A stretch of DNA of 57,251 nt from an uncultured Bacilli bacterium (GTDB taxonomy: Bacteria; Bacillota_I; Bacilli_A; RF39; UBA660): contig CALVOY010000044.1 of NCBI GenBank assembly GCA_944350415.1, forward strand, positions 1 to 57,251. The letters run 5' to 3'. Below the pieces are notes generated by a model, which saw only the letters and a program-made list of their open reading frames with translations, was not told the DNA's origin and did no database searches. Positions 44,402-55,731 of this stretch are shown here, one piece after another (position 1 is the first letter of the stretch; every line of letters starts with the position of its first letter). The position numbers and the translations under genes were made by a program.

Positions 44402-44710
44402 CTACTCCTCTTCTCCCTCTGGCAACCTTAAAATAATCTCGCCTTCTTTAGAATACATATATTTTTCTCTAGCATATCTAGCAACATAATCCGGATCTTC
44501 TAGTCTTTCTACATCAACTTTCAATTGTTCTTCCTTTTCTTTTAAAGAGATAATTTCCTCTTCTAACTGTTGCTTTTCCTGATACTTTTCTACAATCTGT
44601 AACCAATAACTACCAACAGATACAAAAACGGTTATTAGAACAACACAGCAAATAGGAATAAACAAACATAAACGACATTTCATTTTTGCTTTATTCTTTT
44701 TTGCAGTCAT
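44402..44710 (-). CDS. divIC: Septum formation initiator (DivIC/FtsB family)
   Basis: An N-terminal TM, then a coiled coil, then the DPDYVARYAREKY motif. Confidence 0.8.
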   Translation of the reverse strand: MTAKKNKAKMKCRLCLFIPICCVVLITVFVSVGSYWLQIVEKYQEKQQLEEEIISLKEKEEQLKVDVERLEDPDYVARYAREKYMYSKEGEIILRLPEGEEE

Positions 44711-44805
44711 CCTAATCATCCTCCTACTATATTATAATCATAGCTATCTTCATTTTTCAATCAAATAAAATGACATCTTTTGTTTCTTTACAAAAAAGAT
44801 GTCAA

Positions 44806-45078
44806 CTATTTCTTTTTTTTCTTAGTTAAATAATTTCCAAATAGATATCCCAGTATCAATAAAATCAAAAAATATATATGAAATACCCCATAATTAATAG
44901 TTCTTAAAATTAAAAAATAAAGTAAACAATTATCAAATACAAATAATAGTGTAATGAAAACTTTATAAAAAAGTTTACTTTCAAATAAAAAGCGATACTG
45001 CATTCTTAATAGATAAGAAAAGAAAATTCCATATGCAAAAGATACTGTTAAAACTTGTAATTGTATGGATAAATCCAT
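44806..45078 (-). CDS. yabQ: Spore cortex biosynthesis protein YabQ-like
   Basis: 90-aa three-TM protein immediately downstream of and overlapping yabP. The call is based on synteny. Confidence 0.6.
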   Translation of the reverse strand: MDLSIQLQVLTVSFAYGIFFSYLLRMQYRFLFESKLFYKVFITLLFVFDNCLLYFLILRTINYGVFHIYFLILLILGYLFGNYLTKKKKK

Positions 45079-45368
45079 TATTTAAACAACCTACTAATAA
45101 TATTATTTTCCTTGTCCTTCTTCGCTGCATCATCTACATAAGAAAACGATTTTAACAGTCCCTTGATAGAAACATTTCCTTGTAGTGTATCTAATTTCAA
45201 TAGTTCTAATCCTTCACCCTTTAAGACTAAAAATCCCATAACTGTTTCCATCAAAAATTCTTCATCATCAAAACTTTCAATCTTTTTTACTCCTGTAACC
45301 AAGATATTCTTTCTTTCCAGTATATTGATACTATGATTATAATTATTAATTGTATGATCCTTGTCCAT
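45078..45368 (-). CDS. yabP: Sporulation protein YabP
   Basis: Contains HSINILERKNILVTGVKKIESFDDEEFLMETVMGFLVLKGEGLELLKLD. Start set at ATG 45368 behind AGGAGG. Confidence 0.85.
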   Translation of the reverse strand: MDKDHTINNYNHSINILERKNILVTGVKKIESFDDEEFLMETVMGFLVLKGEGLELLKLDTLQGNVSIKGLLKSFSYVDDAAKKDKENNIISRLFK

Positions 45369-45441
45369 ATAATTGCCTCCTAATAAACTATATGAACAAA
45401 ACAGAAAAAAAGAACTATCAATTTGATAGCTCTTTGAAATA

Positions 45442-45723
45442 TTATTCTTCTTCTGTACTAGTTGGTTCTTCTGCTTCTTCATATGCTTTTAGAATTGCTT
45501 CTTCAAACATAGAACGAACTTCAGGATTAATAGGATGTGCAATATCTCTATAATCACCAGTAGGAGTCTTCTTACTAGGCATAGCAATAAATAACCCTTT
45601 TTCTCCTTCAATGATTCTAATATCATGAACTGCAAAACTATCATCTAATAATACAGATGCAATCCCTTTCATTCTAGAACCTTCTTTTTCAATCTTACGT
45701 ACATTTACAGATGTAATCTTCAT
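45442..45723 (-). CDS. spoVG: Septation protein SpoVG
   Basis: Contains [11 protein letters not shown]...[36 protein letters not shown]. Confidence 0.93.
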
Positions 45724-45805
45724 GTGTATCCTCCTTCTAAAGTAATTACTTTATGAAATAATCATATAATAATTTACAAAAAAAAGCAATAGATTTACTA
45801 AAAGT

Positions 45806-46027
45806 TTATGCAACTACTGTCAATACCAATTTTTTAATTAAAACATCACTATAACTAAAAGATTTTACTTGCGAACTATCTTCTAATTTTACCAAAAAAA
45901 TAGAAGGGTAAGTATCTATAATAGTAGCGGAAAATTCTTCTACTTGATTTCTGCTTCCATTAAAACGAAACTGTAGTGTTTGGCCTTTATAAGAATCAAT
46001 TTTTATCTTTACTTTTTCGATATTCAT
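45806..46027 (-). CDS. veg: Veg protein
   Basis: 73 aa beginning MNIEKVKIKIDSYKGQ.... ATGA overlap with the yabG stop. Position between yabG and spoVG. Confidence 0.8.
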   Translation of the reverse strand: MNIEKVKIKIDSYKGQTLQFRFNGSRNQVEEFSATIIDTYPSIFLVKLEDSSQVKSFSYSDVLIKKLVLTVVA

Positions 46028-46806
46028 CTTGGATACCCCACAAACATACAACCCTTAGTCATCACGCCACCAATTCCATCGGCACCAGATTTCGTTTTTG
46101 CCAGTACATCTAATAAATCTACTGTTTTATTTCGATCATACAAAGCCAAATAAGAAGCAATAATAGCAGGATCTAATGCATGAATATTAATTCGTTTAGG
46201 ACTCGAAGCGAAAGTAGAACCAGCCTTAATCAATTCCTCATAATTACTTTGACAAGCCCCAGCAATAATAATTAATTTATCTTGATTTTTTTCATAATTT
46301 CTAGCTTCTTTTACAGCTTCGATAAAATTAACAGTATTCTTATAATTCATCACATTATCTTGAGACCCTTTGCGGCGATAATAAGCATCATGTCCTGTAA
46401 TCACTACAATATCAGGATTCAAATTTTCCAAATAACTTTTGATTTCTGTTTTAATATCATTTTCTTTTAAGCATAAACCATAGGCCATAATATTTAATTT
46501 CTTATAAAAATTCATACATCTCTTTAAATAATCTTCATCACCATCAATATGCAAGATCTTACCTGGTAAATAGAAAAACTCACTTCGATCTAAGTTCAAA
46601 TCATTGGTAATAGAATCTGTAATTCTTTCATCATCTACAACATCTTTTCCATCAACCTTTACCAGATCACTAAGATCACTATCAGCATACAATCTTAAAT
46701 TAATTCCTTTCAAATAAGCAACATTACCCTCTATCTCTACAATCACAAAAAATGTATCATTTTGATGAGAATTGCGAGTAACAATGTCTCCAACTTGAAA
46801 AAGCAT
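46024..46806 (-). CDS. yabG: Sporulation-specific protease YabG
   Basis: 260 aa. N-terminal GDIVTR...AYLKG and central VVITGHDAY motifs. Lies between rsmA and veg, as in Bacillus. Confidence 0.75.
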   Translation of the reverse strand: MLFQVGDIVTRNSHQNDTFFVIVEIEGNVAYLKGINLRLYADSDLSDLVKVDGKDVVDDERITDSITNDLNLDRSEFFYLPGKILHIDGDEDYLKRCMNFYKKLNIMAYGLCLKENDIKTEIKSYLENLNPDIVVITGHDAYYRRKGSQDNVMNYKNTVNFIEAVKEARNYEKNQDKLIIIAGACQSNYEELIKAGSTFASSPKRINIHALDPAIIASYLALYDRNKTVDLLDVLAKTKSGADGIGGVMTKGCMFVGYPR

Positions 46807-47756: not shown

Positions 47757-48257
47757 CTACATAATGCTATTTTTAGTATCCTCTATAATTTTCTTATCAA
47801 AATTAGCAGTAGAAACTACTTCTTTTTTATTACGATGCCACTGAAATCCCTCCAGCATTAATAAAATATTCGATAAAGATAACATATATAACATAGCCCT
47901 CATTGGCGCAATAATATCCGCAAAATAATTAAAATTAATATCGTATCCCAAGCGTATCATAACTACCATATTACGATCAAAGAAAGTTCTATATATAACA
48001 AACAATAACATTACAAATACTAAACAACAAGTAACATTATAAAAGAAACACTGATTAACACTTTTTTGTCTAAAAATAATATTAATGGAAAATAACAGAA
48101 ATAATAAAACAAATGGAATAAAATTAACAATAGCATCCATCATATTTTTTTCAAGTCTTTGATACATATGAATAATAATATAGAAAGTAAATACAAAGGA
48201 AATTAATAATAATAAAACTTTTAAAATCGAAAAAATAGCATTAATAATCTTAATCAT
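47757..48257 (-). CDS. Orphan polytopic membrane protein (last gene of the SipW cluster)
   Basis: About 4-5 hydrophobic segments. Its ATG overlaps the upstream gene's stop (ATGATTAA) and follows GGAGGG. Confidence 0.6.
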   Translation of the reverse strand: MIKIINAIFSILKVLLLLISFVFTFYIIIHMYQRLEKNMMDAIVNFIPFVLLFLLFSINIIFRQKSVNQCFFYNVTCCLVFVMLLFVIYRTFFDRNMVVMIRLGYDINFNYFADIIAPMRAMLYMLSLSNILLMLEGFQWHRNKKEVVSTANFDKKIIEDTKNSIM

Positions 48258-48945
48258 AATTTCCCTCCACTTCATTTCTAAACCAATTAGAAATAAATTC
48301 TACAAAACTAGCTGCTTTTTGATAGGCACCCATAACTTCATAAAAACCATCTTTCGTATTATCTTTAATAGAAGAAGAAGCAATAGATGTATTATAAAAA
48401 TAACTACTATTATTCAGTAAATCTTTTTTTAGATAAGAAGTTTCTTCTTTTAATGAGTTGATATAAAGCTGAATCATATGCTGATTATCTAATAAATAGG
48501 AGCTGTTAAGAGTTTCAGGAGTGATAGTAGTAGTCCAATGTAAATTATTGATAATACAGCTACTCAAAATATCATTTTCATAAGATTCTCTAAGACGATA
48601 TACATCGATAATCGTTATTTTATTTTTTCCTTTCATCTCCTGAATAGTCTTATTTTCAAAGGAATCTGCACAAGACTTTAAATTATAATAAATAACTTGC
48701 ATCTGATTCATAGGAATATTTCCATTATAATTATTAGTAGTAAACAAAGAAATATTTTCTTTGACATTCTGAATCTTAGTTTCAAAATCAACAACCAAAG
48801 GCTGTGAATTAAAATCCGTAATAAAATCCTTACGAATCTCTAAATAATGATACGCATTAGATAATAAATAAAAACTAGCAAAGGCAAAAACAAGCCCAAT
48901 CATAGCATAATTAATAATTTTAAGATATTGTTTAATAAATTCCAT
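48250..48945 (-). CDS. Orphan single-pass membrane protein with a roughly 200-aa extracytoplasmic domain
   Basis: Start ATG 48945 behind AGGAGG. One N-terminal TM (MIGLVFAFASFYLL). Directly follows sipW. Confidence 0.6.
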   Translation of the reverse strand: MEFIKQYLKIINYAMIGLVFAFASFYLLSNAYHYLEIRKDFITDFNSQPLVVDFETKIQNVKENISLFTTNNYNGNIPMNQMQVIYYNLKSCADSFENKTIQEMKGKNKITIIDVYRLRESYENDILSSCIINNLHWTTTITPETLNSSYLLDNQHMIQLYINSLKEETSYLKKDLLNNSSYFYNTSIASSSIKDNTKDGFYEVMGAYQKAASFVEFISNWFRNEVEGNYD

Positions 48946-48955
48946 AATATGCCTC

Positions 48956-49861
48956 CTAAATAATTTGATCTGGATCAGATGGATGATTGGTATCTGATGA
49001 AGATTGAGATAAATTTGTCTGTTCATCGTTATCATCCGGAATAAATATCACTTTGGGTTCTGCTTCTTCTAAAATTTGATAATTTTGTGATGAATTATCA
49101 TGAATTTCATTTCTATTTGCTAAATGAGATGAACCCTGCTCTATAGGTTTTTCTTGCCCTAAATCAGACAGATTTAAGGTTGCTGAAGTAGAACTGGAAG
49201 TATCGTAAGTGGATTCTATATGATTTAATTTCTGTTCAGGAACATCAGAAGAAATAAGTTGCTGAGACTCATCATTTTTATTTTCTTCTTTTTGTTTAGC
49301 AGTTTTAATAAGTTTTAAAACATCACTTCCAATAATTAACAAACAAGGAATTACTACAATCAATAACCATCCAATAGGCTTGGTCATAATCGTTTGTAAA
49401 TATCCAATCATCGGTATTCTTAAGAAAACTTTTCCAATTACCTCATCAGGAGCAATCAAGGCAAAATCTGGCGTGTTATTATGATCACCTTTTGTTCTAA
49501 AACCAACAATTTTTTGTTTAGTCTCATCTTCATAAACAATACCAATCACGCGATGAGTAATAGGAGTACCGGCTGTTTCAATTTCCTTAGATAAAAAAGT
49601 AATAATATCGTCTACTTGAATATCATTTGCATCTACTCGCATAGTAACAACAGCATCATAGACATTAATATGAGGAATCATACTTTCACTAATGATCACA
49701 TAAGCTCCAAATAATGGAGAACGATTTTGACCATTTTTCATAGAATTTTTTTTATCTACAAAAGTAGCAATAAACATTAATAAAGCAATCCCCAAAACCA
49801 AAAGAATAGAATAGAAAAGGATAGATGATAAAAAACGAAAAATTTTTTTAGCTAAATCCAC
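48956..49861 (-). CDS. sipW: SipW-type (ER/archaeal-type) signal peptidase I with a long disordered C-terminal tail
   Basis: N-terminal TM, the catalytic Ser box VIISESMIPHI, the His box PITHRVIG (Ser/His type, not the Ser/Lys type), and a second TM. These are followed by about 110 aa rich in S, Q, D and N. Confidence 0.8.
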   Translation of the reverse strand: MDLAKKIFRFLSSILFYSILLVLGIALLMFIATFVDKKNSMKNGQNRSPLFGAYVIISESMIPHINVYDAVVTMRVDANDIQVDDIITFLSKEIETAGTPITHRVIGIVYEDETKQKIVGFRTKGDHNNTPDFALIAPDEVIGKVFLRIPMIGYLQTIMTKPIGWLLIVVIPCLLIIGSDVLKLIKTAKQKEENKNDESQQLISSDVPEQKLNHIESTYDTSSSTSATLNLSDLGQEKPIEQGSSHLANRNEIHDNSSQNYQILEEAEPKVIFIPDDNDEQTNLSQSSSDTNHPSDPDQII

Positions 49862-49971
49862 TCTATCACCCGATTCCTATTCTTTACTATTATTTAAAAT
49901 AATAATATCACATAAAAAAAAGGAAGTAAAATAAAATAAGAAAAACCAAAGTTTTTCTTGACAATAACTAA

Positions 49972-50607
49972 TTAATGAGCACTGATTGCAGCAACATTTA
50001 CTTTTAAGGAAAAATATTTATCATTTAAAATACTATAATCGAAATTTAGTTCCTGTGGATCTTTGATCCATATTCTAAGTCGAAATCTTTTTCCATAAGA
50101 TACTTCTCCTGCTTGAACCGTCCCATAATAAACAGTCTTTCCTGTTAAAAGGCTATTGGTAGTATCCTCTAATTCATAATATGTTGGAATTCCTTTCTCA
50201 GTAGAAGTAATAGAAGTAGGAATTTCTTGATTGCCTTCAAAAGTAGTTAAATAGATCTTTATCCAATCATCTGGTAAAGTAGAAGCTTCATCTTTTTGTA
50301 CAGTTATTTCATAGGCAAGATTACTTTGAGTAGTAGTAGCAAAAATAGAAAAATCAAAATATTCTCCATCACCAGCCAACACCTTTCCTACTTCATCAGA
50401 AATAGGGGTAGCATTTTCAATATAAATACCATTACCACCATAATCGGCATCTGAATAAGAAAAAACAATTCTACCTGTTTGAATAACATTATTCGTTAAT
50501 CCTTCTCCAAAATAATCAAAAATAGCATAACTAATGCCACCAAAAAGAAAAATTAATGATAAAAATAACAAAATGATAGCAATAGTATTTATTTTAGATT
50601 GCCTCAT
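49972..50607 (-). CDS. Secreted protein with a SipW-cognate (TasA/CalY-style) signal peptide, paralog 2
   Basis: The N-terminus ...LIFLFGGISYAIFDYFGEG resembles the GGGT(F/W)A(Y/A)F(S/N)D signal-peptide end of TasA/CalY. About 60% identical to paralog 1 over the GRIVFSYSDA...YFDFSI core. Confidence 0.7.
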   Translation of the reverse strand: MRQSKINTIAIILLFLSLIFLFGGISYAIFDYFGEGLTNNVIQTGRIVFSYSDADYGGNGIYIENATPISDEVGKVLAGDGEYFDFSIFATTTQSNLAYEITVQKDEASTLPDDWIKIYLTTFEGNQEIPTSITSTEKGIPTYYELEDTTNSLLTGKTVYYGTVQAGEVSYGKRFRLRIWIKDPQELNFDYSILNDKYFSLKVNVAAISAH

Positions 50608-50613
50608 TTAAAA

Positions 50614-51240
50614 TCACTCCTCTTCTATTTGATAAGCATAAACATCAATTTTAACAGAAAAATATTGTTCCTCATAGTTTTTAGCATCTTCTTTAAGCCA
50701 CATTCGAAAACGGTAAGCATCACTATAATTATTTAACTCCTTACCTAACTTTTTCTCATAAAGAACATAATAATCTTGATTATGAATTTTCTCCATTTTC
50801 AAATCGGAAAAATCAGCAAAAACTTTTTCCTCTTCATAACCTCCCATTAATTGAGTTAAATAGACACGAACATTATCATTACTCAAAGTAGAACCTGAAT
50901 CTTTATGAATTAAAATTTTATACAAGAGATTAGTATTTTTAGTAGAAGTAGTAATAGCAAAATCAAAATATTGATGGGTTCCAACCATTACCTTGCCTAC
51001 TGCATCTGAAATGGGAATAGCATCTTCTAATAAAATTCCATTCCCTGCTTGTCCAGCATCTGAATAAGTAAAAACAATCTCACCAGTATTGATTTCATTA
51101 TCACCAGTTTCATCTTTATAATATATAGAGTAAGTGATTCCTAACACACAAAAAAATAAAAGAATGGTAAATAAAAACAGATAGATCCAGTAATGACTAT
51201 TTGTTTGTTTTTTTGAATCAGTATTTACATGATCATCCAT
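50614..51240 (-). CDS. Secreted protein with a SipW-cognate-like signal peptide, paralog 1
   Basis: TM/signal segment ending LGITYSIYYKDETGDN. The core GEIVFTYSDAGQAGNGILLEDAIPISDAVGKV...YFDFAI is paralogous to 49972-50607. Start set at ATG 51240 behind GGGAG. Confidence 0.65.
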   Translation of the reverse strand: MDDHVNTDSKKQTNSHYWIYLFLFTILLFFCVLGITYSIYYKDETGDNEINTGEIVFTYSDAGQAGNGILLEDAIPISDAVGKVMVGTHQYFDFAITTSTKNTNLLYKILIHKDSGSTLSNDNVRVYLTQLMGGYEEEKVFADFSDLKMEKIHNQDYYVLYEKKLGKELNNYSDAYRFRMWLKEDAKNYEEQYFSVKIDVYAYQIEEE

Positions 51241-55118: not shown

Positions 55119-55147
55119 ATTATAACACAGTTATAGCTATTCTTCAA
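55119..55147 (-). promoter_or_regulatory. Candidate promoter of the T-box-dut-metG unit
   Basis: TTGAAG-17 nt-TATAAT with an extended -10 TG (TGTTATAAT). The -35 overlaps the end of the spoVT-like ORF. Confidence 0.55.
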
Positions 55148-55655
55148 CTCTTTTTACTAAAATAGAGCTGATAAATCTTACTAAGTTTTTATCCTCTTCA
55201 CTAATATTCTGATCTACTAATATCACACTTCCTAATGTATCACTATTTACTAAAAGTGGTACTAAAAAGAAAGAAAAATCAGTTACCTCATCTATAATAA
55301 TGAAAGAACCATCTCTAGAATAAGATTCTTCTCTAGAATCAATTTTTTCTTTAATACTATTAGATAATTCTTTTCCTAAAAAATTACGGTTAAAACTTTT
55401 AGGTGCAGCAATAACCTTTTCTTTATTAGTAATCAAAATATTCTTATTATAAATTCTGGATACAGAGTCTACCAATACAAAGGCACTCTCTACCATATCA
55501 TCTAATAAGGAATATTTTTTTAAAATAATATCCCCATCATCTACAAAAATCTCTAAACTATCTCCCTCATTAATTTTAAAATTTCTTCTAATTTCTTTAG
55601 GAATCACAATTCTACCCAAATCATCAATTCTTCTAACAACGCCAGTTGCTTTCAT
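55137..55655 (-). CDS. spoVT: AbrB/SpoVT-family transcriptional regulator (SpoVT-like, with a C-terminal GAF-like domain)
   Basis: Contains MKATGVVRRIDDLGRIVIPKEIRRNFKINEGDSLEIF (SpoVT-AbrB swapped-hairpin domain) plus a C-terminal domain of about 120 aa. Length is about 172 aa, as for SpoVT. Confidence 0.8.
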   Translation of the reverse strand: MKATGVVRRIDDLGRIVIPKEIRRNFKINEGDSLEIFVDDGDIILKKYSLLDDMVESAFVLVDSVSRIYNKNILITNKEKVIAAPKSFNRNFLGKELSNSIKEKIDSREESYSRDGSFIIIDEVTDFSFFLVPLLVNSDTLGSVILVDQNISEEDKNLVRFISSILVKRVEE

Positions 55656-55731
55656 ATATAACCTTCTTTCTATCATTAGTGTTAGAAAAAATCTTAAGAT
55701 TATACAAAAAAAGTATAGATTTTAATCTATA

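Follow-up and report, generated by a model that had tools for sequence, protein, structure and literature searches.

TasA-type donor-strand fibers have recently emerged as a cross-domain way to build biofilm matrices and pili. In Bacillus subtilis, TasA carries a phenylalanine at P2′ and is cleaved by SipW, a dedicated endoplasmic reticulum (ER)-type signal peptidase; aromatic residues at P2′ lead to inefficient processing by LepB of Escherichia coli (PMC10269814). In the TasA fiber, the donor strand corresponds to residues 28–38, Phe29 included (PMC9674648). BsaA of Clostridium perfringens also needs SipW. It polymerizes by strand exchange with an isopeptide lock, is membrane anchored without LPXTG, and is detectable only by sensitive profile methods (PMC11580942). 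The blueprint of the archaeal and bacterial Tafi (TafA/E, TafC, TafD, TafF, and TafG) and AbpX/AbpA systems includes major and minor subunits, a TIGR02228-type peptidase with a membrane accessory, tip proteins combining the subunit module with other domains, and a membrane anchor.

Here we describe a gene cluster of an uncultured gut Bacilli bacterium that compares with these systems. The window analyzed is the whole stretch of 57,251 nt (contig CALVOY010000044.1). Between a 3D-domain (yabE-like) gene and rsmA, it contains a block of five genes, all on the minus strand and spanning positions 47757–51240, in agreement with an earlier note on this DNA. They encode two paralogs predicted to be exported, which we named parA and parB, a signal peptidase, and two membrane proteins, G4 and G5. 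This layout matches that of published TasA-superfamily systems, which favors Sec export, SipW-class cleavage, and donor-strand polymerization. The block most likely works like the TasA and BsaA systems. We give a probability of about 0.55 to the reading in which a SipW-class signal peptidase and substrates of its own make up a divergent extracellular fiber or surface-scaffold system of the TasA-superfamily type.

The Signal Peptidase and Its Candidate Substrates

Standard annotation of the five proteins by Pfam and NCBIfam scans identified the peptidase alone. It scores 98.9 bits against TIGR02228 (sigpep_I_arch, cut-off 51.85) over model positions 4–154 of 158, versus 17.6 bits against the bacterial P-type model TIGR02227 (cut-off 47). 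With the Bacillus SipW equivalog model NF046067, the score of 82.5 bits lies below the cut-off of 190. According to these profiles, the protein is a signal peptidase I of the ER/archaeal type (SipW/SEC11 class), the same class as Bacillus SipW, without an ortholog-level match. Human SEC11C (7p2q) is its sole relative by sequence in the PDB. The peptidase motifs SESM (S58-E-S60-M), THRV (T102-H103-R-V), and GDHN align with SGSM, VHRV, and GDNN of SEC11C, and this alignment assigns Ser60, His103, and Asp126 as the predicted catalytic set. A Ser-His(-Asp) set is present rather than the Ser-Lys dyad of P-type (LepB) enzymes. The SipW-type assignment of the earlier note, which had cited the SESM and THRV boxes, is thereby confirmed. 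Hydropathy analysis predicts two transmembrane helices, at residues 6–38 and 157–188. Beyond the second one, a polar tail extends for about 110 aa (residues ∼190–301; window 48956–49290) and is rich in Ser, Asp, Gln, Asn, and Glu. This tail is mostly missing or variable in orthologous peptidases, which are 197–293 aa long.

By their sequences, parA and parB are paralogs, sharing 37% identity over 184 aa (E 6e-35); the earlier note had rightly paired them as two proteins of about 210 aa (208 and 211 aa). The protein parA comprises a long charged N-region, one hydrophobic helix (residues ∼15–41), the sequence GITYS/IYY (slashes mark predicted cleavage sites), and the family beta-sandwich domain. 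In parB, MRQSK precedes a 20-residue hydrophobic helix, GGISYA/IFDY, and a beta-jelly-roll. Neither has a reported match among the Pfam and NCBIfam models (to E 0.1). A word-indexed search gave 120 relatives, all metagenomic or derived from metagenome-assembled genomes (MAGs), none of them named. With a hidden Markov model (HMM) of the family, against which parA scores 219 bits and parB 237 bits, we retrieved 5,127 representatives at E ≤ 1e-3 and 617 at E ≤ 1e-30 among 1.84 billion cluster representatives (50% identity clusters). The family was found in uncultured Bacilli MAGs and in 'Clostridium sp. CAG:451'. Several contigs carry a human gut metagenome label, one MAG name contains 'Hadza', and one MAG holds at least four family copies on separate contigs. 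When 33 and 76 members of the family were scanned at E ≤ 10, most hits were hydrophobic-helix noise, for example, FliL, Sigma_reg_N, and ETRAMP.

The family module is N-terminal in all of the best 149 representatives. Sixty of these are, like parA and parB, at most 260 aa long, and 68 exceed 400 aa, up to 1,781 aa. The long members carry Cadherin-like, Laminin_G_3, ALK_LTK_GRD (ALK_LTK glycine-rich), LRR_5, or Big_2 domains, and these adhesin-type domains place everything after the N-terminal helix outside the cell. Two members of 276–277 aa, P0106 and P0225, have an extension of about 75 aa ahead of the hydrophobic helix. In P0106, this extension carries a precomputed PF08032 (SpoU_sub_bind) match. 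Either the gene call has fused a fragment of an rRNA methyltransferase gene lying upstream, or the extension is genuine and cytoplasmic.

Conservation within the family peaks at the end of the hydrophobic helix and in the next 30 residues, not in the globular domain. The consensus of this region is G-[VI]-[ST]-[YF]-A-x-F-x-Y-x-K-x-G-x-x-x-N-x-I-x-T-G-x-I-x-F-x-Y. Both paralogs show the succession of a hydrophobic helix, G-x-[ST]-x-A/x-F with an aromatic P2′ residue, and N-x-[FI]-x-x-G-x-[LI]: parB reads GGISYA/IFDYFGEGLTNNVIQTGRIVFSY followed by NNVIQTGRIVF, and parA reads LGITYS/IYYKDETGDNEINTGEIVFTY followed by NEINTGEIVF. The N-terminal strings and mature motifs quoted in the earlier note are thus present in the sequence, and they are conserved across the family. 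Cleavage is predicted after Ala28 in parB and after Ser38 in parA, giving parB a signal peptide of 28 aa versus 27 aa in TasA. The residues at −3 and −1 are small, in keeping with type I cleavage. At the fixed positions, counted in 131 of the 149 wide-family representatives, Gly occurs 119 times, Ser or Thr 121 times, Ala 111 times, and Phe 120 times. The pattern G.[ST].[AS].[FY], picked after both families had been seen, occurs in the first 60 residues of 118/120 TasA proteins, 123/149 wide-family, and 105/120 close-family members. In the same region, it is found in none of 120 G4 proteins and in 3 of 612 background open reading frames (ORFs).

We compared the family profile with that of TasA (a 30-sequence alignment) using hhalign. 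The two match with P = 3.5e-4 to 7e-4 and a nominal probability of 26–37%, and the match is confined to the first 62–63 columns. Its register places GVSYAxF on GGTWAAF (GGTWA/AFND), N.I.TG.I.F on N.FA.GTLDL (ATFASGTLDL), and I.NA.P on L.NLKP. Controls with reversed TasA, with the family against G4, and with TasA against G4 gave P = 0.13–0.29, so the hydrophobic helix alone does not yield the TasA signal. Similarly, the family HMM scored 7 of 120 TasA proteins above 5 bits (maximum 9.2), always in the hhalign register, and none of the 108 score-giving reversed TasA sequences or of the 120 G4 proteins. From these sequence comparisons, we conclude that the predicted signal of parA and parB is of the TasA/SipW-cognate type. 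Both the hhalign match and the pattern counts bear out the resemblance that the earlier note had seen in the N-terminal segments.

AlphaFold2 models were made for single chains, parB with its uncleaved helix. The parB model has a mean predicted local distance difference test score (pLDDT) of 85.4 and a predicted template modeling score of 0.73. It consists of a helix (residues 2–34) followed by an all-beta sandwich (beta-jelly-roll), with the lowest confidence at residues 31–60 (pLDDT 59–71). In a Foldseek search of the PDB, the TasA fiber 8aur_A is the top match (E 2e-4, probability 1.0), and the TasA-like archaeal bundling pilus 7ueg is also listed. The structure prediction proposed in the earlier note, carried out here on a single chain, thus has the TasA fiber as its best PDB match.

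The main rival to a fiber is surface display without polymerization, which we consider possible but improbable. The N-terminal module would then be a membrane-proximal base, either an uncleaved anchor or cleaved and singly docked, presenting variable adhesin domains, maybe with little use of sortase, and parA and parB would be small monomeric surface or matrix proteins. The adhesin-type C-terminal parts, the module that is always N-terminal, and the proportion of long members (about 60% of the best 149 representatives exceed 260 aa) fit this reading. So do the hydrophobic segment of about 20 residues, long enough for a transmembrane anchor, the variants made of a transmembrane helix, a Pro/Thr linker, and then the domain, and the location of most family genes away from any SipW gene. 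However, a plain anchor would need no strongly conserved small-x-small site precisely where the helix ends, with an aromatic residue at P2′, a site that matches the TasA cleavage site, and a dedicated peptidase gene lies beside short members in ten loci, counting the window. Moreover, the region after the site is the best conserved yet has the lowest pLDDT, as expected for strand pairing with another subunit.

Two other surface systems were considered and rejected. The C-termini of the paralogs (...VNVAAISAH and ...VYAYQIEEE) contain neither LPXTG nor a hydrophobic segment, and no sortase family was found among the eight neighborhood proteins scanned for families, the rest of the window being unscanned; a sortase-pilin reading was therefore discarded. 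In the family, the conserved site follows the hydrophobic helix instead of preceding it as in a class III signal, and the locus has no prepilin peptidase, which rejects a type IV pilin. The weak Pilin_N matches in 4 of 76 relatives (best E 0.051) are of the kind produced by a hydrophobic helix.

Gene Linkage and Accessory Membrane Proteins

A family gene lies beside a SipW-class gene in ten loci: the window, L004–L007, L012, L069, L074, L094, and L095. Seven of them (the window, L004–L007, L094, and L095) share a slot just downstream of tatD or the 3D gene. This slot ends at rsmA in six loci; in L004, G5 is followed by other genes, and the fetched flank contains no rsmA. The 3D gene is a conserved neighbor in L004, L006, L007, and L094, but not in L005 and L095, and parA orthologs occupy the same first position in L004, L006, and L007. 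In L012, L069, and L074, located elsewhere than the shared slot, the family gene is directly followed by the peptidase gene. Family gene(s) and peptidase gene form the constant pair across loci and are kept together in divergent lineages. As most long family genes are dispersed, they would be served in trans if they encode substrates. Between the window and L005, identity reaches 76% for MetG, 52–62% for TatD, RsmA, and YabG, and 45% for the peptidase, versus only 26–39% for parA, parB, G4, and G5. Fast divergence of this kind is typical of surface proteins.

Several of these loci differ in organization. In the tatD–rsmA slot, L094 (2980–6726) harbors a variant cluster of three family members, the peptidase, and an additional protein that we named X, and L095 (1801–3671) a reduced cluster of two motif-less family members and the peptidase. 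Neither contains G4 or G5. In L069 (6474–8450) and L074 (7617–8450), the gene directly upstream of the peptidase gene encodes a protein with an N-terminal transmembrane helix, a long intervening region, Pro/Thr-rich in L074, and a C-terminal family domain. This anchored architecture is distinct from the cleavable one.

G4 has a single N-terminal transmembrane helix and an extracytoplasmic helical bundle (AlphaFold2 pLDDT 83.6). It has no Pfam match. The earlier note had considered both membrane proteins as orphans, which does not hold: G4 has 154 homologs, all unnamed. Foldseek returned only generic helical bundles for G4 (vinculin and catenin tails, E ≥ 0.075), from which no function was drawn. 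Its loop NNSSYFYNTSIASSS.KDNTKDG is highly conserved and predicted to be disordered. The most conserved stretch, LKKDLLNNSSYFYNTSIASSS.KDNTKDGFYEV (residues 172–200), overlaps the sole segment disordered in the AlphaFold2 model (180–192, pLDDT < 50), and a related core, NN[SA][SN]Y, is kept in the distant homologs of L005, L069, and L074. This loop may serve for interaction or strand donation. The small membrane protein G5 is polytopic, with three strong hydrophobic segments and a fourth, weaker one. Its only database match, EpsG (18.9 bits versus a cut-off of 30.1), was rejected as a sub-threshold membrane-helix similarity.

G4 is co-conserved with the peptidase in L004–L007, L012, L069, and L074. 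It is always followed by G5 in related loci (L004–L007, L069, and L074), the L012 contig ending inside G4. Missing from L094 and L095, these two proteins are not core components but lineage-specific accessories. The anchoring role suggested for them in the earlier note is not established: some related loci retain the peptidase and family genes but lack both proteins. Neither has a Pfam match to DUF5305/TafG, and their architectures also differ from that of TafG, which combines an extracellular beta-sandwich, a pair of transmembrane helices, and an alpha/beta domain in the cytoplasm.

Conversely, protein X, encoded after the peptidase gene in five loci (table 1), is absent from the window. It is 170–178 aa long and has an N-terminal transmembrane helix followed by a family-like domain (P.SD..GK, Y.F.V, Y.L[KR]IW, and K.F) that is N-terminally truncated and lacks both the cleavage motif and the donor region. 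L095 encodes a comparable anchored, motif-less family member. Judging from this architecture, X could be a membrane-anchored acceptor subunit. An anchored and donor-less protein is expected of a membrane-proximal acceptor, and we count it as support for strand exchange.

The linkage data also bear on a housekeeping role, in which the peptidase would be the general signal peptidase of a reduced Bacilli lineage, G4 and G5 possibly its accessory subunits, on the model of the eukaryotic or archaeal signal peptidase complex, and parA and parB abundant substrates encoded beside it by chance. In favor of this reading, at least seven loci, the window included, have the cluster in a core, vertically inherited slot among the housekeeping genes metG, tatD, and rsmA. 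Translational coupling joins the peptidase gene to G4 and G5, a hairpin and a promoter-like site divide these three genes from the subunit genes, and accessory subunits (DUF5305/TafG) have been proposed for TIGR02228-type peptidases in archaeal loci. We nevertheless regard this role as unlikely. The peptidase gene is always beside family members rather than unrelated secreted proteins, and the family site is of the kind that general P-type peptidases cleave inefficiently. Furthermore, G4 and G5 are dispensable in L094 and L095 and show no likeness to DUF5305 or to subunits of the signal-peptidase complex.

A Candidate Fiber System Compared with Known Assemblies

Several observations weigh against a TasA-type fiber system. 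The superposition of the parB model on 8aur_A gives template modeling scores of only 0.39/0.36 with a root mean square deviation of 10.8 Å, and carbohydrate-binding modules, TNF, and adhesin jelly-rolls score almost as well in Foldseek. When the signal peptides are removed from both alignments, hhalign finds the same register but with P = 0.15; the sequence similarity is established for the signal and cleavage region only. The A-x-F site is missing in some members, for example, in P0116–P0120 and both L095 members. PF12389 (Peptidase_M73), NF046066, and TIGR04088 have no reported match to parA (E ceiling 0.1) or parB (E 10). Among 76 relatives, matches are all sub-threshold: 2 to PF12389 (best E 0.052), 3 to NF046066 (best E 0.0082), and 2, at E 0.07, to TIGR04088, the SipW-cognate signal model. 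Apart from the peptidase, neither the window proteins (parB at E 10) nor the family profile matched a PDB sequence at the E ceilings searched, and the profile search of PDB sequences returned no TasA. Regarding linkage, G4 and G5 are both absent in L094 and L095, a peptidase gene lies within the fetched flanks in only 2 of 80 metagenome loci of family genes, and the stand-alone locus of P0104 (L001) has none nearby. In that locus (L001 7407–8531), a GGDEF (c-di-GMP synthase) gene lies two genes downstream and a second family member 5 kb upstream (703–1341).

The searches that the earlier note had proposed with the SipW-cognate signal and camelysin/TasA models are therefore negative at curated thresholds, in line with its own statement that the paralogs are not TasA or camelysin proper. 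By the criteria of these models, the sequences of parA and parB are outside PF12389 and TIGR04088. The mature domain is a jelly-roll compatible with the TasA superfamily, membership being unproven. The fiber-system layout proposed in the note holds in that the locus matches the blueprint of TasA-superfamily loci, but homology of the mature domain is not established (P = 0.15; template modeling score 0.39).

The block shares several features with the tapA-sipW-tasA operon of B. subtilis: a signal ending in G-x-T/S-x-A/x-F with an aromatic P2′ residue, subunits of about 200 aa with a beta-jelly-roll (predicted for parA and parB), and a second related or minor exported protein in the cluster. It differs in that no significant sequence similarity to TasA extends beyond the signal and cleavage region, the family motif continuing as F-x-Y-x-K-x-G where TasA has F-N/S-D. 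The gene order is also different (two subunit genes, peptidase gene, two membrane protein genes), no TapA homolog was recognized, and the window family has hundreds of multidomain adhesin-like members.

The sipW-bsaA-bsaB-bsaC operon of C. perfringens similarly combines a SipW gene with two tandem paralogs remotely similar to TasA, of which one polymerizes and the other does not. However, in that operon, the peptidase gene comes first, and BsaC, which carries a von Willebrand A domain, stands in place of G4 and G5. An Asn-Glu-Lys isopeptide lock of the BsaA type was rejected for the window family, as Lys117 is replaced by Arg in 16/76 relatives and Lys75 is found in only 60/76. With Tafi and AbpX/AbpA, the block shares candidate major and minor subunits and a TIGR02228-type peptidase. 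Unlike in these systems, its accessories are not DUF5305/TafG, G4 being a transmembrane helix with a helical bundle, its peptidase has 2 transmembrane helices versus the 10 reported for AbpX-associated peptidases, export would be by Sec rather than Tat, and the host belongs to a gut Bacilli lineage.

In the fiber reading that we favor, Sec would export parA and parB with their N-terminus inside the cell, and the peptidase would cut parB after Ala28 and parA after Ser38. The new aromatic-rich N-terminus (IFDYFGEG..NNVIQTG in parB) would then serve as a donor strand that enters the jelly-roll of the neighboring subunit, like those of TasA, BsaA, AbpA, and Tafi, and a chaperone-free fiber would result. 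In this fiber, the role of major subunit would fall to parB, and parA would be minor or nucleating. The many long members of the family that such genomes encode elsewhere, which combine the same N-terminal module with Cadherin-like, Laminin_G_3, LRR, or Ig-like domains, might use the same peptidase and join or dock as adhesive subunits. G4 and G5, translationally coupled to the peptidase gene, would be lineage-specific membrane accessories or anchoring factors.

A wider and more doubtful proposal is that the N-terminal module constitutes a general, sortase-independent attachment and polymerization system shared by a large gut Bacilli clade. Each genome would have one SipW-class peptidase to process dispersed substrates, including giant adhesins of about 1,800 aa, which would be tethered by non-covalent donor-strand complementation to anchored acceptors (X or G4) or in mixed fibers. 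An analogy with pilus adhesins has been drawn previously (PMC9245690). As in the chaperone-usher adhesins (FimH), a pilin-type beta-sandwich is fused to an adhesin domain, with possible incorporation by strand complementation. By contrast, the module of the window family is N-terminal and would donate the strand, there is neither chaperone nor usher, and the cell is predicted to be monoderm. Should this proposal hold, it would represent a chaperone-free Gram-positive counterpart of pilus-tip adhesin display.

What makes this family interesting is how large it is, that annotation misses it, and that it is fused to adhesin domains. Surveys that rely on PF12389 or BLAST are not expected to detect it, because neither paralog and only 2 of 76 relatives, both sub-threshold, match PF12389. 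If its members prove to be subunits that SipW processes and that exchange strands, this assembly principle would have a substantially wider known range (about 5,100 representatives at 50% identity), and the display of large adhesins by poorly known gut bacteria would be explained. The peptidase and a 210-aa subunit would then form a compact gene set testable in heterologous hosts, and G4, G5, and X would be new accessories for studying the anchoring of fibers on a monoderm cell.

Gene Organization and Chromosomal Neighborhood

The coordinates of the block and its neighbors are given in table 1. On the minus strand, the gene order is metG, tatD, 3D gene, parA, parB, peptidase gene, G4, G5, rsmA, yabG, veg, and spoVG. 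For parA, G4, and G5, we took as starts internal ATG codons with good ribosome-binding sites. The mechanically called ORF of parA begins at TTG 51255. That of G4 is 261 aa long and exaggerates the overlap with the peptidase gene. With these starts, 15 nt separate the 3D gene from parA, 6 nt parA from parB, 110 nt parB from the peptidase gene, and 10 nt the peptidase gene from G4, whereas the start of G5 overlaps the stop of G4 by 8 nt. As described in the earlier note, the last three genes are tightly spaced or overlapping, the overlap being between G4 and G5 and not between the peptidase gene and G4. The G+C content is about 28% throughout without compositional break, and the entire window belongs to the core chromosome and carries rpoB/C, tuf, fusA, and ribosomal protein genes.

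Table 1. Positions of the genes and sequence signals in and around the five-gene block, and of protein X in related loci
Feature	Positions	Strand	Length	Remarks
metG	54418–52844	minus		
tatD	52692–51904	minus		
3D-domain (yabE-like) gene	51855–51256	minus		PF06725, 31 bits (cut-off 23.8)
parA	51240–50614	minus	208 aa	ATG behind GGGAG ribosome-binding site
parB	50607–49972	minus	211 aa	
Hairpin after parB stop codon	49938–49959	minus	9 bp	U-rich tract
Promoter-like site ahead of peptidase gene	49902–49930	minus		TTTACT, 17 nt, TATTAT; upstream TG
Signal peptidase gene	49861–48956	minus	301 aa	GTG start
G4	48945–48250	minus	231 aa	ATG behind AGGAGG
G5	48257–47757	minus	166 aa	ATG behind GGAGGG
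rsmA		minus		Downstream of block; TIGR00755, 261.6 bits
yabG		minus		Downstream flank; PF05582 and TIGR02855 matches
X	L005 7523–8032; L012 4387–4920; L069 9072–9605; L074 9069–9599; L094 6202–6726			After peptidase gene

The AT-rich hairpin after parB has a folding energy of −7.8 kcal/mol (z = −2.2). In the consensus terminator scan, it does not pass the G+C criterion, and we kept it only as a terminator-like feature that is weak and AT-rich. Its appearance is that of a weak intrinsic terminator or attenuator between the subunit genes and the peptidase genes. In addition to the promoter-like site ahead of the peptidase gene, a second one (51926–51898), the only strong one nearby, lies upstream of the 3D gene; both are consensus matches only, and such sites are just as numerous in the region as expected from shuffling. 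Together with the hairpin, they suggest two units, 3D-parA-parB and peptidase-G4-G5. From this arrangement of signals, the subunit genes might be expressed more highly than the peptidase, G4, and G5 genes. Given the position of the strong promoter-like site and the gap of 15 nt, the 3D-domain (peptidoglycan-active) gene may be co-transcribed with parA and parB. An Rfam search in and around the block gave no match to a riboswitch or other RNA element at E ≤ 1.

The order metS-yabD-yabE-rnmV-ksgA-yabG-veg of B. subtilis is a conserved origin-proximal arrangement of Bacillota. In B. subtilis, rnmV thus lies between yabE and ksgA (rsmA); in the window, no rnmV lies between the 3D gene and rsmA.

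This neighborhood raises the question of a spore-associated structure, that is, a coat, crust, or appendage component that sporulating cells would make and the adjacent peptidase would process. The genes yabG, spoVG, yabP, and spoVT are neighbors in the window or in syntenic loci, TasA was first described as associated with the spore coat, and 'spore coat-associated protein N' is the name of many TasA-family proteins. Nevertheless, the link to spores made in the earlier note is positional only and is not established, the neighborhood being the general Bacillota arrangement. The consensus promoter scan identified no sporulation promoter or regulator, and the adhesin domains of the long family members are typical of vegetative surface proteins. 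We consider a spore-specific role the least likely of the readings presented here.

Sporulation-associated genes are found on both sides of the cluster (window 44402–46806 and 55140–55676). On the basis of their translations, and of the synteny with L005 and L094, we read spoVG (45442–45723), a yabP-like gene (45078–45482), a yabQ-like gene (44806–45078), divIC (44402–44719), and a SpoVT/AbrB-like ORF (55140–55676). With these genes, the host seems to belong to a low-G+C Bacilli lineage, represented by MAGs alone, that forms spores or once did.

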